Source of the DNA: Bdellovibrionales bacterium
Lineage (GTDB): Bacteria; Bdellovibrionota; Bdellovibrionia; Bdellovibrionales; UBA1609
Length of the DNA stretch: 64,000 nt
Reading direction: 5' to 3'
NCBI GenBank assembly: GCA_965219095.1
Contig: CBDCMT010000001.1
Coordinates: forward strand, 192,001-256,000
The position numbers were made by a program. Each line of letters begins with the position of its first letter. Positions within the stretch are counted from its first letter, which is position 1. Below are positions 33,001 through 42,000 of the stretch, in pieces.

Positions 33001-36000
33001 GGATACATGGCTGTTTGTCAAGGAAGTGATATTTAATCACCTAAATTCGGGGCAAAAAATATCCACTACAAACATCCTAACATTTAAAATATCTTAAAAC
33101 GGTCTTTCTTCCTCTGAGAAAAGACAAGATTTCTTGAAAAAGAAAGGGGTTTGCCATTGACTACTATCTGTAGTAGTGTATATATTATACATTATAGGAG
33201 GGGATATGAGCTTCATAAGAAAAATAAAAAAAGGCAATAAAACTTAGTAAAATGACAACTGTAGTGTATATTTTTGACCCCGAATTTAGGTTAATCAGTT
33301 ACACAATTTAATTTACAGACTCATAATACAGTTTTCTGACTTTACTTTTTCAATCCAGTCCTTTGAGAAATTCTACTACATCAAAATGTCCTTTTGCTTT
33401 CGCCAACATAAGTGCTGTCCTTCCCTTATTATCTTTAGCATTTACATTTGAAACTTTAAAAAGAATCCTTACAATATCGAGATGTCCTACTCTTGCGGCC
33501 CACATAAATGCTGTCCATCCGCTATAATCTGTAGCATTTACATCTGAAACTTTAGAAAGAAACTCTACTACATCTGCATGTCCGTAACGTGCGGCCCACA
33601 TAAGTGCTGTCCATCCGTCATAATCTGTAGCATTTACATTTGAAACTTTAGAAAGAAATTCTACTACATCTACACGTCCGTAACGTGCGGCCAACATAAA
33701 TGCTGTCTTTCCCTTATTATTTTTAGCATTTACATCTAAACCTTTAACTTTAGAAAGAAGCTCTACAATAATATTGAGATGTCCGTAATATGCTGCATAC
33801 ATAAATGCTGTCATTCCCATATTATTTTTAGCATTTACATCTAAACCCTTAACTTTAGAAAGAAATCTTACAATATCGAGATATCCGTAAAATGCTGCAT
33901 ACATAAGTGCTGTCCATTGACTGTCATTATCTTTAGCATTTACATCTGAAACTTTAGAAAGAAACTCTACTATACTCCTTCCGTTTAAGTTTTCCGTTTT
34001 TTTTGAGTTGAGGTCTAGTTTTTATTCTAAGGTCTTGATAAAAAGTCATTTATTTTTAAAAATAGTTTCATATGTCAGGGTTTCTATCAAAAAAAGAGCG
34101 AAAAGATTTACTCTATGAACTATCTCTAGAGAAAAATCTTAAATACGCAAAAAGGATTATGACAATTCTCCATTTAGATAAAGGTGAGTTGTGTAAAGAT
34201 ATTTCCCGTTTTCTTTTCATTGATGAGGGCACGATAAGAGCCTGTAGAGATCGTTATAACAAAGGCGGAATAGAGTGCTTAATCAACGACAATTACAGTT
34301 CTAAAAGGTCCTTTTTAACTCAAAAAGAGGAGAAAATGCTTTGTAAGACATTAGAGAAAAGAATTTTTCCATCATCACAGGCTGTTATTCAGTTCATTGA
34401 GGAGAATTTTAGTGTTACGTACTCAACAAGTGGTGTGATTGATCTTCTCCATCGCCTTGGTTTTTCTTATAAAAAAGCCACAGCGGTGCCGGGTAAGGCA
34501 AAGAGAGAAGAGCAGGAAAAGTTTGTGCGTAAATACAAGAGAATTAAGAAGAAAGACGGTCCTGTTTACTTTGCTGATTCCACACATCCTGAGTGGGGCC
34601 CTACAATTTCATATGGTTGGATAAGAGAGGGTAAGAAGTTTGAAGTGAAGACCAATTCAGGCTGGAGAAAAAGAGTGAATGTTTGTGGAGCTATTGAGAT
34701 CAATAGTTTAAAGACGGTAGTCAGGAGTTATAAGACAGTCAACCATGTTTCTATATGTGATATGCTCCATCATCTTCGCAAGAAGCATCCCGATGAAAAA
34801 GAGATTCATCTTATCTTAGATGGGGCCGGATACAATAGATCAAAGTCTGTCAAGAAGTTAGCGAAAGAGTTGAATATAAAACTTGTTTATCTTCCTCCGT
34901 ACTCACCGAATTTAAATCCTATAGAAAGGCTTTGGAAGTTTATGAAAAAAGAGGTCACGGCGAATCGATATTATGAAAACTATGACGATTTCAAGGGAAG
35001 TTTAAGTCAATTTTTTAGAGGAATACGAAAACACAGACCTAAATTAGAAACTTTGATAACTGATAACTTCTCTATCTTAGGAAACTGAAAACCTAAACGG
35101 AAGCACTATATAACATCTATTACAATTTAAAGCTTGTTTTTATAACTTCTCCCCTCAGAATCCACAGAAAACCCTTTGTCATAAGAGATTCTCATAGATA
35201 TCTTTTTGATTTTTCTTCTATTTTCCAGAAAGAACATTTTAAACTACCTTTTGATAACATCAACTTTTACCTTGATTTTTTCCTTATCTGAAAATATTTA
35301 TAAACTCTTAACTGTTAGACATAGTCTATAAAATTTACAAAAGTTTTATAAAAAATATAGTAAAAAAGTTAGTTGAACTTTTTTAATTGTCTTAACTGTA
35401 TAAAAAATGATAATAATGATGAAAAATAATTACGCTGGGTGTTTCAGTTAATTTCAAAGGATAAATACGATTTTAAGGAATATGATTTTATGAACTTTAA
35501 AACCTTCTTGTTTGCTTTAAGCTTTCCAGTTTTTTTCTCATTCTCGCAGCTCACTTTTTCACAAACTCCTGTGAGTTCAGATCAACTCACCGAAGCTATC
35601 AAAGAAGCTCGCCTCACAAATCCAGAACTTCGGTACATCAAAAACTTAGCTGAAAGTATGGGAGTCCGGGTCTGGCTTTTAGGAGGATCAGCCTCTAGTT
35701 TAGCTCACTATGTGAAAAAAGATCTAGAACGAAAGGAAAATAAGAACAGGGGCTGGTTTAAACTCCAAAAAGAACATTTCGATTACGACTACACAAAGAT
35801 CTTTTTTCCCACTCAGGATATAGATTTAGTCATAGAAGGGGGGTCAGAGGAAGAAGCCTCAAGGCTAGAAGGAGAGCTTTCTAGAAAGTTTCCTTACTTT
35901 CAAGGAAACAGCAATAAAAGTGCTTGGGAGGTAAGGCCCTTAAGAGAATCAAGAGGTCCAAAGGCACCTTTATTGGAAGGAGATGTATTAAAACAGCATA

Positions 36001-39000: not shown

Positions 39001-42000
39001 ACAGCAATAAAAGTGCTTGGGAGGTAAGGCCTTTAAGAGAATCAAGAGGTCCAAAGGCACCTTTATTGGAAGGAGATGTATTAAAACAGCATACCGATTC
39101 TTATTCTGTGATGATGATAGAGCTGACTGAATCTAAAGATCCTGTAGTAAGAAGCATCAAGGAGTGGGATTCCAGAAACTCTTCCCTTTTAGAAGATCTT
39201 CTCAAAGGAGAAATAAGCTATTATGATTCAAAAAATCATAAAGAAACTCAAAGGTACAAAGAGGGTATGAATCCTGAGATCTTTTCAGTCATCCGTTATT
39301 TGATTAAAATGTTTCAATATGAACTAAAGCCTAAAAAAGAAGATTTAGAAAGGATTAAAGAAATTATAAATGAATTTTCAGATTCAAAATTAAAAACAGG
39401 TTATGCAAAGTTCTGGTGGGAGATGAATGTAAGAAAGTTATTTATGCAAAATTCTGATCTGGAGAGAGCTTGGAGAGTGCTTGATGAATTAGGTTTAAAA
39501 GAAAAGCTCATAAATTTGGGGGGAGATAAAGAGAAAAAAGGAAGTCTTGCTTTTTGGTTTCATAAAGAGCCTTTAAAAGCTAAGAACATAGGAGAAGGAA
39601 AGGGAAGGACAGCTAAGGATCTGGGAATAGAGATCGTCTCTCATGAAACAAGAGATTTTAAAGCTTATGAAATTATAACAAGATCTCTTAAAGGAAAGCC
39701 TAATGCTTTTCTCTCAAGAGAAAATGCTGAGGGAGAGAATGCAGCATTTGGAGCGGGCTTGTACACAATGAAGGGGCTAACAGGAGCAGCGAGAGCTGGT
39801 TTTACGATTCGGTTTCATGTACACCCTGAAGCAAGAGAGGGAGCAGATTTTGCATTAGACGGTGATATAGTTATTTTTCGTAACAAAGCTGTATTGAGAG
39901 TAATTCCTGATAGCTTTAACCTAAATTTCAGAGAGTTTTTCGAGTTTTTGAAAAGAAGTAAAAAAAACTGGGACAATGAAAAAGGCTTGTTAGAAAGGTT
40001 AAAAAGAAAACTGGATCGTGAATTATTAAACGGTAAAGTCAGTGATAAGGATCTAGATTATGTTTATAAAGAGATTGTTTTAAAGTCAGTTAAAAAGGGA
40101 AACCCTTCATGGGAAATTGTCCTTCAAGAATGGTTTGAACTGGATCTTTTCCTAAGTTTCAGAGATTTTTTCGAGTTTTTGAGAAGAAGTGAAAAAAACT
40201 GGAACCTTGAACAAGGTTTGTTAGAAAAGTTAAGAAGAAAAATAAATCGTGAATCATTAAACGGTAAAGTCAGTGATAAGGATCTAGATTATGTTTATAA
40301 AGAGATTGTTTTAAAGTCAATTGAAAAGAAAGATTCTTCATGGGAATCTGTCATTTCAATATGGTTCACACTAGATATTTCTATAAAGTATCTTGATATT
40401 GATTTTATTAAACGCTTGATCGACAACATGGTAGGAGGGGAACCTCATCAATATATGATAAATATTATAAGGTTTATTTTATCAGATGACCGAATGATTC
40501 AGAAATATCATAAAGAATGGGTGAAAATCATGGAAGCTCTGATTGGAAGAGGCTACGCTAGTTTTATTGCAGAGTACTTTTTATCAAAAGACTTCGTGAT
40601 TCAAGAATATCATCAAGAATGGATGAAGTTAGTAAAATATATGATTAAAAAAGGCTACGGTGAATATATTATAAAGTACGTTTTATCAAAAGACTTAGTG
40701 ATTCGAAAATATCATAAGGAATGGACAAAGCTTATGAAATATTTCATAAATAAAGACTACCCCCTCAATCATAGAGTGATTTTAAAACGTGTTTTGTTAA
40801 AAGACTTAATAATTCAACAATACCCGGAAAAATGGGCGGAATGGATGGGGATTTTGGTTCGCAAACAATCTTATTCTGCTGCAGGATATGTTTTATCAAA
40901 AGAAATTGTAATTCAACAACATCCGGAAAAGTGGATGAAGTGGATGATTATAGTTTTATTTCCAGAACACCGTATGGGCACTTTTTATTATGCAGCTGAA
41001 GAACTGGTTTTATGGAAAAAGTCAATGATGAAGCATCCTCAGTGGGCAAAATTAATCCAACGTTTAGCGAAATTAGCGAAACAGTATAATGACCATGACT
41101 TAAAAGCCAGGATAGAAAAGTTAGTAAGAAACCACCCTCAGTGGAAAGAATGGCTGCAAACTACGAAAAGTAGCGAAGAAGATATGAAGTTTAAACTTAT
41201 TGAAGACTTTCTCAAATATAAGTCTAATGAAAAGCCTCAATTCTCAAAAAATTCTTGTAAGCTTCTCTTCTAACAAACTTCACTCTTATTTTAGCCTGAA
41301 ATCCCTAAAATTATGACTAGCTTTTTAGAAAAGGGAATGATTTTCTTTTCATAGACATTTCTTACAATTGTATCTTAGTGTTTGACTCCACTTTTTTAAC
41401 GCAGTCCAAAGTGTCTATCACACAGCCTATAAAATTTACAAAAGTTTTATAAAAAATATAGTAAAAAAGTTAGTTGAAACTTTTCAAGTTGGCTTACTGC
41501 GTAAAAAATGATAAAATGATGAGAAAAACACTCATAAGTTTTTCACAAAACTTCATAAGGGTAAATATGATTTTAAGGAATATGATTTTATGAACTTTAA
41601 AACCTTCTTGTTTGCTTTAAGCTTTCCCGTTTTTTTCTCATTCTCGAAGTCCACTTTTTCACAAACTTCTGTGAATTTAGACCAACTCACCGAAGCTATC
41701 AAAGAAGCTCGCCTCACAAATCCAGAACTTCGGTACATCAAAAACTTAGCTGAAAGAATGGGAGTCCGGGTCTGGCTTTTGGGAGGATCAGCCTCCAGCT
41801 TAGCTTACTATGTGAAAAAAGATCTAGAACGAAAGGAAGATAAGAACGAGGGCTGGTTTAAACTCAAAAAAGAATATTTCGATTACGACTACACAAAGAT
41901 CTTTTTTCCCACTCAGGATATAGATTTAGTCGTAGAAGGGGGGTCAGAGGAAAAAGTCTCAAAGCTAGAAGAAGAAATCTCTAGAAAGTTCCCCTACTTT

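Follow-up and report, generated by a model that had tools for sequence, protein, structure and literature searches.

A family of predicted exported proteins in Bdellovibrionota that joins a class II CCA-adding-enzyme-like nucleotidyltransferase to an ADP-ribosyltransferase fold

The class II CCA-adding enzymes and bacterial poly(A) polymerases (CCA/PAP enzymes; 4wby, 3h37, 1miv and 3aql; PF01743) have the same fold and motif A as the protein family described here, and the ADP-ribosyltransferases (ARTs) of the H-Y-E clade (diphtheria toxin, PARPs, Tox-ART-HYD1/HYD2, Arr, RhsP2) share a second fold with it. In diphtheria toxin a signal peptide comes first, then the catalytic part and last the binding region, which resembles the succession of signal-like N-terminus, catalytic part and tail in the family. 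The SidE effectors of Legionella also combine two catalytic domains, including an ART, in one protein, but their partner domain is a phosphodiesterase and they are delivered by Dot/Icm. The literature searched contained no report of a class II nucleotidyltransferase fused to an ART.

MenT/AbiEii (DUF1814) and the present family both belong to the Pol-beta superfamily. MenT is the toxin of a toxin-antitoxin system and its antitoxin is linked, whereas the family is distinguished by a putative export signal and the class II fold. Extension of tRNA 3′ ends has been proposed for MenT (PMC7450476, in the part of the text available). The survey's comparison of the family with MenT-type toxins holds here as an analogy only: there is no DUF1814/AbiEii profile match in the family and no antitoxin-like neighbour is conserved among 73 loci. 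Gad2, a phage anti-Gabija protein of nucleotidyltransferase fold, is toxic when expressed, and the available part of its description mentions neither an export signal nor an ART (bioRxiv 10.1101/2023.05.01.538930). Polymorphic toxin systems, as presented in most of the text of Zhang et al. 2012 (PMC3482391), where the word 'Bdellovibrio' does not occur, resemble the family in being secreted (predicted here), multi-copy and recombining, with toxin-type catalytic folds. The arrangement is nevertheless reversed, as the survey had remarked, since the constant N-terminal part consists of enzymes (two of them), the tail varies and no immunity gene was found.

The 64-kb stretch of Bdellovibrionales DNA analysed (the window) contains four copies of the family (Table 1). 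The genome as a whole has five long copies (791, 899, 783, 790 and 606 aa), all on contig C2, and the first two are 78% identical over 756 aa, which bears out the multi-copy paralogue family previously proposed. Broken copies are present as well, at about seven loci rather than about six, and they are not confined to C2, as one lies on C1. In agreement with the earlier description, profile searches gave no significant Pfam or NCBIfam match for the family proteins.

Table 1. Features of the family array, with positions in the window
Feature	Position	Strand	Evidence
Left arm of the 2283-nt perfect inverted repeat bounding the array	32984..35266	.	
Copy 1, 791 aa, with a signal-like peptide, the nucleotidyltransferase and ART domains, helical repeats and C-x-x-L-F at its end	35490..37865	+	
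Sec-type signal-peptide-like N-terminus, residues 1-24 (putative cleavage site)	35490..35561	+	sequence, hydropathy heuristic
Class II CCA/PAP-like nucleotidyltransferase domain, residues 30-328 of copy 1	35577..36473	+	Foldseek, VIA, alignment
ART-fold domain, residues 340-447 of copy 1: H354, E385, Y394, D431 (putative third triad position)	36507..36830	+	
Tandem 231-nt (77-aa) duplication behind the ART (96.6% identity in copy 1)	36836..37302	+	
102-nt (34-aa) helical repeats, number differing between copies	37378..37689	+	
Terminal C-x-x-L-F motif and stop codon of copy 1	37848..37865	+	
Copy 2, 899 aa, intact, architecture as copy 1	38574..41273	+	
Copy 3, 5′ piece, residues 1-218, IS-broken	41590..42249	+	
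IS630-family element (DDE_3) and DDE_Tnp_1 element inside copy 3	42366..45450	.	
Copy 3, 3′ piece with the ART, the repeats and the terminal motif, starting near residue 216	45445..47049	+	
Copy 4, which the inverted repeat's right arm cuts off after residue 169	47575..48084	+	
Right arm of the 2283-nt inverted repeat	48062..50344	.	

The 420-aa head had been described as folding like CCA-adding enzymes. This is true of residues 30-328, while residues 340-447 have an ART fold instead; the head is thus composed of two domains, which explains why the earlier CCA match extended over no more than half of it. For the first domain, the class II CCA/PAP fold was confirmed with Foldseek (E 2.7e-6) and VIA (Z 11.1, rmsd 4.8, 236 residues aligned to class II CCA-adding enzymes), and the best matches of both are class II CCA/PAP enzymes, which act on RNA 3′ ends. 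The match spans the class II head and the helical region after it (Z 9-11, versus 5-6 for minimal nucleotidyltransferases), and the fold is shared over residues ~30-310. Motif A (G-G, D-x-D) and an E-V-x-x-x-R strand align with these enzymes. The key residues are G65 G66, Q109 D110 D112 and E147; G-G, D110 and D112 are kept in 148 of 150 relatives and E147 in 145, so that the reported conservation of the catalytic acids stands. The invariant basic residues R149, R238 and K242 would fit a nucleic-acid or nucleotide substrate.

Apart from its signal-like N-terminus and fused ART, the family differs from CCA/PAP enzymes in its motifs. The RRD of motif B is absent and replaced in that region, where the alignment is of low confidence, by Q-H-T-D. 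Motif D (EDxxR), the base-reading template motif of class II CCA-adding enzymes (PMC8563995, in the part available), is also absent, the aligned stretch being G-x-N-P-x-I-x-S-V-I-R. PF01743 has no match at E≤1 in the family proteins, the two matches in the genome being separate genes outside the family, and profile comparison with CCA enzymes gave a weak match (P 0.0033, probability 9.6%). Since the CCA base-reading motifs are lost, the domain is not a CCA enzyme in spite of its fold. Its ESM neighbours at 0.90-0.91 carry Gad2 (38%, 61%) and PolyA_pol (64%), which makes Gad2 a lead at the level of ESM similarity.

The G-G-x-x-S ... D-x-D motif, said to be kept, is generally so, except in the 606-aa copy, where G-G, both motif-A aspartates and the third acid are lost. 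Four intact expanded copies of this genome have 14-17 of 90 family-conserved positions changed, mostly in the nucleotidyltransferase; elsewhere the median is 2 and no more than 12 are changed. The near-canonical copy of the genome is broken.

The second domain comprises about 105 aa. Among 50 VIA matches 49 are ART-fold proteins, some of them so assigned here, with a best Z of 6.6 (rmsd 3.4, 93 aligned), which is in the range that the tool calls uninformative alone; Foldseek gave no match at E≤1e-3. H354 is present in 150/150 relatives and Y394 in 149/149, both on predicted strands, and they were equated with PARP residues by motif order, not by superposition. As in the H-Y-E clade, the His lies on the first strand and is accompanied by a G-x-G-F-Y strand. 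In contrast to that clade, the ART is fused behind a nucleotidyltransferase, there is an extra invariant loop Glu (E385), and the third triad position (putatively D431 in copy 1) is not a fixed Glu (D 73, N 20, G 12 and E 11 of 148). E385 may stand in for the third triad acid.

No significant sequence or profile link connects the ART domain with any named family: the Tox-ART-HYD1 and DUF3990 profiles each matched one of 86 members below the cut-off (E 0.013 and 0.021, respectively), and comparison with Arr, for which only two sequences were used, gave P 0.13. In the ESM comparison, PARP, Arr and Tox-ART-HYD1 come closest among the named clusters, with a value of 0.89. The best VIA matches include diphtheria toxin and PARPs, which are protein-modifying enzymes, and others are Tne2, MbcT, NatT (NADases/RES toxins) and Tpt1/KptA. 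Tpt1/KptA has an H-H-h signature and an RNA-binding lobe; here the second position is Tyr and only the NAD lobe matches.

Searches for relatives returned 610 cluster representatives at E≤1e-3 and 426 at 1e-30, which replaces the previous figure of 34 other proteins. The nucleotidyltransferase and the ART co-occur in all of the 150 best relatives, 147 of which keep both catalytic sets. Of 88 further ART matches, 86 carry the nucleotidyltransferase, and the only four ART-only proteins found are short and apparently fragments. The survey's interpretation as a single RNA-tailing enzyme omits a domain that is equally conserved and essentially never separated from its partner. In the model of the head (pLDDT 93.4, pTM 0.93) both domains form one rigid unit. 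All 73 named loci are in Bdellovibrionota-type genomes, and the family is multi-copy elsewhere (17, 10, 9, 8 and 7 loci in other genomes), with tandem arrays of up to four genes. No small antitoxin- or immunity-like neighbour recurs among these 73 loci, in keeping with the earlier failure to find an immunity gene. A scan of 46 of the 150 relatives revealed the Ank and FGE-sulfatase domains already reported, and HEAT repeats too.

A hydrophobic 9-mer occurs within the first 45 residues of 131/144 relatives but in only 37/749 interior windows (a hydropathy heuristic only); a lipobox was found in 2/150 and later TM-like segments in 5/150. Together with the fold matches, this is in line with the earlier prediction that the enzyme is exported and has a fold of the class II CCA type. 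At the other end, 109/150 relatives have a Cys within the last 20 residues (3.8 expected), and the only cysteine of copy 2 is that of its terminal motif. C-x-x-L-F is a candidate sorting signal. The survey had not recorded this motif. The same motif ends a signal-bearing, ATP-dependent triple-AAA+/M41 protease, which keeps three Walker A motifs and HEXXH and is encoded ≤6 kb from a family gene in 9 of the 10 genomes that have both.

The genome encodes a T2SS, type IVa pili and Tad. A sheath of a T6SS was not found, and the FHIPEP gene sits in a flagellar-type export cluster. The Sec/T2SS route alone does not lead into the cytoplasm of another cell. No flagellin was found, and the genome is rich in IS and ankyrin, so that host association is no less plausible than predation. 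Secretion in B. bacteriovorus has been called largely unexplored (PMC12622784, in the portion available).

The family is probably an exported two-enzyme effector that acts in the cytoplasm of prey or host, because its enzymes need NTP and NAD+. Both folds, their constant pairing, the catalytic positions, the two terminal signals and the tail polymorphism are supported computationally. Sec would carry the protein to the periplasm; as NTP and NAD+ are in short supply there, it would be harmless to its producer and no immunity gene would be needed. C-x-x-L-F would then mark it for a shared onward route, perhaps by way of the T2SS, type IVa pili or Tad. Once inside the prey or host, the conserved head would act on one substrate class, likeliest the ends of RNA or a structured RNA, for instance tRNA: the class II-type nucleotidyltransferase would add non-CCA nucleotides, and the H-Y-type ART would move ADP-ribose from NAD+ to the substrate, blocking translation. 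The variable tail (HEAT-like/34-aa repeats, ankyrin, FGE-like) may set target or uptake specificity. RNA as the target is proposed tentatively, at rather less than an even chance, and the same holds for this explanation taken as a whole. Points against it are the low ART scores, the unfixed third triad position, the weak CCA profile match, the ESM link to Gad2-like phage nucleotidyltransferases and the drift of the expanded copies of this genome. Fairly unlikely is an extended form of it, in which a so far undescribed Bdellovibrionota route takes Sec cargo with terminal C-x-x-L-F into another cell's cytoplasm, the two domains work in series on one substrate, giving a composite modification such as an ADP-ribose-capped nucleotide tail, and the AAA+/M41 protease is co-delivered.

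Both domains need intracellular substrates, which points to a so far undescribed weapon with prey or host cells as its destination. How Bdellovibrionota shut down such cells, and how their proteins exit, is poorly known, and the family offers handles on both: (i) a class II nucleotidyltransferase-ART fusion, with two predicted activities in one protein, (ii) a five-residue terminal motif common to unrelated cargo and (iii) two kinds of predicted exported enzyme whose dependence on ATP, NTP or NAD+ implies that they are delivered into a cytoplasm. Should the two domains work in series, a modification of RNA or protein that is new would result.

A fairly unlikely alternative is that the exported dual enzyme modifies proteins, the ART ADP-ribosylating and/or the nucleotidyltransferase NMPylating a tail-bound prey or host protein (e.g. 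a translation factor, RNA polymerase or a defence protein), possibly in series, as in SidE. The diphtheria toxin and PARP matches, the protein-binding repeats of the tails, the Gad2-like anti-defence proteins among the nearest ESM clusters and the loss of the CCA base-reading motifs are all consistent with it, but the nucleotidyltransferase match extends over the head and helical region of RNA-polymerising enzymes. Loop 377-410 of the ART, in which the heads of the paralogues diverge most (pN 0.194 vs 0.026), is what an acceptor-recognition loop would look like, yet its pN/pS of 0.59 fits imported blocks, not positive selection. We consider it improbable that metabolism or signalling is the target, with the nucleotidyltransferase making a dinucleotide or NAD+ analogue used by the ART, or the pair draining NAD+/NTP pools. 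NADases, RES toxins and Tpt1/KptA among the ART matches, the top ESM neighbour Arr with its small-molecule acceptor, the rigid constant fusion and the unfixed catalytic Glu speak for such activity; a small-molecule substrate, however, would need no large variable binding tails, and the two Arr sequences compared gave no sequence link.

It is also improbable that the proteins are not delivered into another cell and instead work in the periplasm, on the surface or within a compartment derived from prey, perhaps scavenging or remodelling released RNA and nucleotides, or that the drifted copies of this genome serve chiefly as binding proteins. A Sec signal by itself indicates only a periplasmic location, the T6SS sheath that was not found and the flagellar-type setting of the FHIPEP gene would suit this view, and the nucleotidyltransferase has drifted in four copies, with its catalytic residues gone in one; against this stand the residues for NTP- and NAD+-dependent chemistry kept in 147/150 relatives, a nucleotidyltransferase pN/pS of 0.36 among the paralogues and the intact motifs of the linked protease. 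It is extremely improbable that the paralogues are passive IS-copied passengers with no selected role. One IS630 has 54 copies in the genome, the inverted repeat bounding the array is perfect (its left arm contains an ankyrin ORF, IS630 and part of the copy 1 upstream region), near-identical duplicates lie at C2:1848518-1852986 and about seven copies are broken, so the most recent duplication in this genome may still be explained in this way. For the family, IS copying as the origin, which the survey had considered, is largely refuted by the tandem order of copies 1-3 with no IS between them, the position of IS elements inside broken copies, the arrays in other genomes and the selection, which on sequence comparison is purifying.

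The tails are polymorphic, as described before, with 64 clusters among 144 relatives. Swapping of C-terminal halves had been inferred; mosaicism does occur, and includes the head, but the change in the tails is mainly gain and loss of the 231-nt duplication, which is tandem in copy 2 too and single in the other long copies, and of the 102-nt repeats. The 54 informative sites fall into 11 runs, against 32 expected, and none of 100,000 shuffles gave a number as low.

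The window (C2:192001-256000) carries four tandem paralogues (copies 1 to 4), of which copies 1 and 2 are intact. These two correspond to the ORFs of the survey's finding, at the same positions, and 756 of their residues align at 78% identity. The survey had found no Pfam family for the protein, which our searches bear out, and NCBIfam likewise gave no significant match. Across the genome (3.11 Mb in two contigs, C1 and C2; 94% complete), its count of five long copies (791, 899, 783, 790 and 606 aa) stands, while its estimate of about six broken loci rises to about seven. A promoter scan yielded only a shared consensus match, which is sigma-70-like and lies within the upstream DNA common to the copies.

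Features of the array and of related loci (plain coordinates count along the window; C1 and C2 are the contigs)
Feature	Location	Remarks
Copy 1	35490-37865	791 aa
Copy 2	38574-41273	899 aa
Copy 3, 5′ piece	41590-42249	split from 3′ piece by two IS elements
Copy 3, 3′ piece	from 45445	downstream of two IS elements
Copy 4		ends after residue 169, cut by one arm of the inverted repeat
Perfect 2283-nt inverted repeat	arms 32984-35266 and 48062-50344	contains ankyrin ORF and IS630
Ankyrin-repeat ORFs	33350-33904 and 49424-49978	identical, inverted, apparently cut 5′ by IS630; members of a dispersed ankyrin family
Sigma-70-like matches	35334, 38419, 41435	identical (10/12); upstream of copies 1-3
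Counterparts of copies 3-4	C2:1848518-1852986	near-identical
Broken family copy	C2:976344-977717	nearest to family consensus
AAA+/M41 protein (locus L140)	C2:1116490-1120596	1368 aa
Presumed flagellar-type export/regulatory cluster	C2:942582-949744	FlhB-like ORF of just 219 aa
Further proteins ending in C-x-x-hydrophobic-F	C1:684145-685314; C2:76369-77652, 297645-299135, 537991-539052, 842865-844919, 1095401-1096300, 1639731-1640555	no Pfam match; two have the family's helical tail repeats without the enzyme head
Signal-bearing proteins with Cys motif directly after the signal peptide	C2:646671-647645, 1996563-1997288, 91525-91860	

A search with the first 450 residues, referred to as the head, gave 610 cluster representatives at E≤1e-3, of which 426 reached 1e-30; the relatives examined were the best 150 of the 610. 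The family is present in 23 of 401 phylum genomes, this one counted. From a collection of species genomes came 199 confirmed stretches, and the 73 loci retained are all from MAGs whose titles give Bdellovibrionota ranks or generic Deltaproteobacteria/Proteobacteria bins. Single assemblies hold 17, 10, 9, 8 and 7 loci, and other genomes too carry the genes in tandem, up to four in a row (e.g. locus L035). Divergent relatives at loci L018, L019, L020 and L022 (genomes G082, G103, G142 and G286) match the head in part, over residues ~4-300 or mainly in its second half. The paralogues might be regarded as passengers of insertion sequences, and IS copying did shape recent events in this genome, as seen from one IS630 element present in 54 copies and from the near-identical counterparts of copies 3 and 4. 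Since the family is broad and forms tandem arrays elsewhere, IS copying is not the cause of the family, and the passenger explanation is very improbable.

The survey had also described C-terminal halves swapped between paralogues. For this genome the description is overstated, as the tails differ mainly by a 231-nt duplication confined to copies 1 and 2, and by a varying number of 102-nt helical repeats; family-wide, the polymorphism is real, and 144 tails sort into 64 clusters. HEAT, ankyrin and FGE-sulfatase-like domains were found in some of the 46 relatives scanned. The FGE-sulfatase-like fold, on which the variable proteins of diversity-generating retroelements are built, forms the C-terminal end of a subgroup (P0020, P0038, P0050, P0076, P0079, P0080, P0098 and many matches of the search with the second head domain alone). 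The head is also mosaic, with 11 runs among 54 informative codon sites (32 expected). Its most divergent segment is the loop 377-410 (pS 0.33, pN 0.19), for which positive selection is unsupported (pN/pS 0.59); pN/pS is 0.36 in the first domain and 0.34 in the rest of the second, all values coming from six non-independent pairs of paralogues.

The head was modelled with AlphaFold2 from 86 sequences (residues 25-455; pLDDT 93.4, pTM 0.93). Class II CCA/A-adding enzymes top its Foldseek ranking (E 2.7e-6), a second structure search (VIA) gave Z 11.1 (rmsd 4.8, 236 aligned), and the viral structure library concurs. The class II CCA-like fold proposed in the survey is thus borne out, but the head comprises two domains, the second of which had been overlooked. 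In the first (residues 30-328; numbering of copy 1), G65-G66, D110 and D112 are conserved in 148 of the 150 relatives and E147 in 145. A profile alignment to CCA/PAP enzymes (27 sequences from related genomes) was weak (P 0.0033; reversed control 0.57) and was obtained in local mode only, the global mode giving none. In this weak alignment motif A and the third-acid strand correspond, while the RRD and EDxxR positions are occupied by other invariant residues (Q169, D172, N230, R238 and K242). EDxxR is described as the base-reading template of CCA enzymes in PMC8563995; because it is replaced in the family, the choice of nucleotide must differ. Domain 1 is therefore a class II-type nucleotidyltransferase and not a CCA enzyme; two ordinary PF01743 genes exist separately in the genome. 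As a lead only, the nearest ESM embedding clusters (0.90-0.91) include Gad2/PolyA_pol-like phage proteins; bioRxiv 10.1101/2023.05.01.538930 describes Gad2 as acting against Gabija and predicts a nucleotidyltransferase domain in it.

Domain 2 (residues 340-447) is, on its structural model, an ADP-ribosyltransferase (ART) fold. When the whole head was searched, diphtheria toxin, PARPs, MbcT, RhsP2 and Tpt1 aligned with model residues 314-421 (protein 338-445). With the domain modelled alone (pLDDT 88.7), 49 of 50 rows of the structure search were proteins that we take, by title or known fold, to be ART-fold, the single other row being a cyanophage ejectosome chain. The best match (Z 6.6, rmsd 3.4, 93 aligned) is not decisive by its Z, and the assignment derives from the uniform hit list and the order of motifs. 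H354, within H-E-T on the first core strand, is present in 150/150 relatives, and Y394, within G-x-G-F-Y-T on the second, in 149/149; both motifs resemble those of the H-Y-E clade of ARTs described in PMC3482391. The inferred third triad position is variable (D 73, N 20, G 12, E 11 of 148), and the loop glutamate E385 is conserved in 148. Foldseek with this domain alone gave no match at E≤1e-3. There was no significant sequence match among PDB sequences, Pfam, PHROGs, NCBIfam or phage genomes, the profile comparison with Arr (two sequences on the Arr side) was not significant, and no sequence or profile search tied the domain to any named family. Its named ESM neighbours are PARP, Arr and Tox-ART-HYD1 (0.89). 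The search for Tox-ART-HYD1 found it in 0/301 phylum genomes and likewise in none of the control genomes, and was therefore uninformative, as was that for the TLC nucleotide carrier.

The two enzyme domains travel together. Both occur, once each, in 150/150 relatives, and 147 have both catalytic sets. As these relatives came from a query containing both domains, searches with the ART alone are the fairer test: 86 of 88 further proteins carry the nucleotidyltransferase, the exceptions being one that begins at the ART and one chimera-like ABC-ATPase record. Among 774 candidates for short stand-alone ARTs there were four matches, all fragment-like; both searches were word-indexed, so that distant forms would escape. 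The literature searched (titles and beginnings of abstracts) gave no prior description of the family, the fusion or the terminal motif; a fusion of this kind may be listed in a 2016 survey of RNA repair or in its supplements. CCA enzymes and KptA appear as separate phage RNA-repair proteins in PMC7824862.

By a hydropathy heuristic, 131 of the 144 relatives with a complete N-terminus (6 truncated ones excluded) have a hydrophobic stretch among their first 45 residues; of 749 interior windows, 37 have one. A lipobox in just 2/150 rules against a lipoprotein reading of the family, and later TM-like segments occur in 5/150. C-x-x-L-F closes each of the five long copies, and in three of the four long copies checked its cysteine is the only one. 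The broader form, C-x-x-hydrophobic-F, stands exactly at the C-terminus of 14 of 2832 ORFs of the genome, compared with at most 1 at any other offset, and most of the 14 are signal-bearing members of unrelated families. Cysteine occurs within the last 20 residues of 109/150 relatives, where 3.8 would be expected. Of the 41 relatives without a terminal Cys, 19 have a similar motif after the signal peptide, as does 1 of the 109 with it (Fisher 7e-12, which overstates independence, because the 18 N-motif proteins on the head tree need only about seven changes). Sixteen of these 18 belong to one tail cluster, and the pattern is largely that of one lineage; the 19 proteins with the post-signal motif include 7 of the 8 chosen by an FGE-type C-terminal pattern.

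NTP, NAD+ and ATP are scarce in the periplasm. Enzymes that need them and carry Sec-type signals would therefore be useless there and harmless to the producer, which would explain the missing immunity gene. The ankyrin ORFs of the window were rejected for this role, being the two arms of one inverted duplication, belonging to a dispersed family and not recurring beside relatives; the small ORFs (26-52 aa) between copies 1 and 2 were not convincing. The simplest reading, which we consider probable from the sequence features, would be delivery into the cytoplasm of prey or host by a route that recognises the terminal motif; action without delivery into another cell is quite improbable. The genome encodes secretins of T2SS, type IVa pilus and Tad types and has three weak VirB4-like matches, with no match for a T6SS sheath or flagellin. 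We take one cluster, with presumed FliP/Q/R-, FlhB-, FlhA-, FlhF- and FliA-like ORFs, to be of flagellar export/regulatory type. The lack of a flagellin match, the many insertion sequences and the dispersed ankyrin family suit host association as well as predation.

The substrate of the delivered enzymes would possibly be RNA, which we favour tentatively because enzymes with the closest folds have RNA 3′ ends as substrates and invariant basic residues are present; tRNA tailing by MenT and RNA-modifying H-Y ARTs such as RhsP2 point the same way, some H-Y ARTs reportedly modifying RNA. Modification of proteins instead of RNA is unlikely, and warfare against nucleotides or NAD+ rather more so. 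That MenT toxins block tRNA through tailing is outlined in PMC7450476. At 90 family-conserved positions the four intact expanded copies deviate at 14-17, compared with a median of 2 and a maximum of 12 in the 146 other relatives; 12-15 of these deviations lie in the nucleotidyltransferase, the core acids being retained. In the 606-aa copy the acids of the nucleotidyltransferase have been lost, and so has the loop glutamate of the ART. The nucleotidyltransferase of this genome's copies may thus have changed in specificity or been weakened. The family would work like a targeted enzymatic effector, and lies outside the CCA, MenT, HYD, Tpt1 and classical polymorphic-toxin families.

Among the recurring neighbour clusters of the 73 loci, the sole system-specific enzyme is an AAA+/M41 protein, seen at 6 loci; the remaining clusters either are common genes such as sensor kinases and ABC transporters or occur in at most four loci, and no small immunity-like gene recurs. 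In this genome the AAA+/M41 gene adjoins a broken family copy. Its product begins with a signal-like stretch and contains three AAA+ modules, in which Walker A and B motifs are present, followed in this list by an M41 protease domain bearing HEXXH; the terminal Cys motif is present as well. Close relatives are found in 33/401 phylum genomes, ten of which also have the two-domain family (1.9 expected if independent, kinship being ignored), and in 9 of these 10 the two genes are no more than 6 kb apart. This apparently exported ATP-dependent protease deserves a study of its own. Signal-bearing triple-AAA+ (ClpA/B-like)/FtsH-type M41 proteins of 1300-1550 aa, their Walker and HEXXH motifs intact and a Cys motif at the end, are also encoded at two other loci (L038:1495-5793 and L079:1304-5587) and represented by P0079, which is a fusion of the protease with a protein of the two-domain family.
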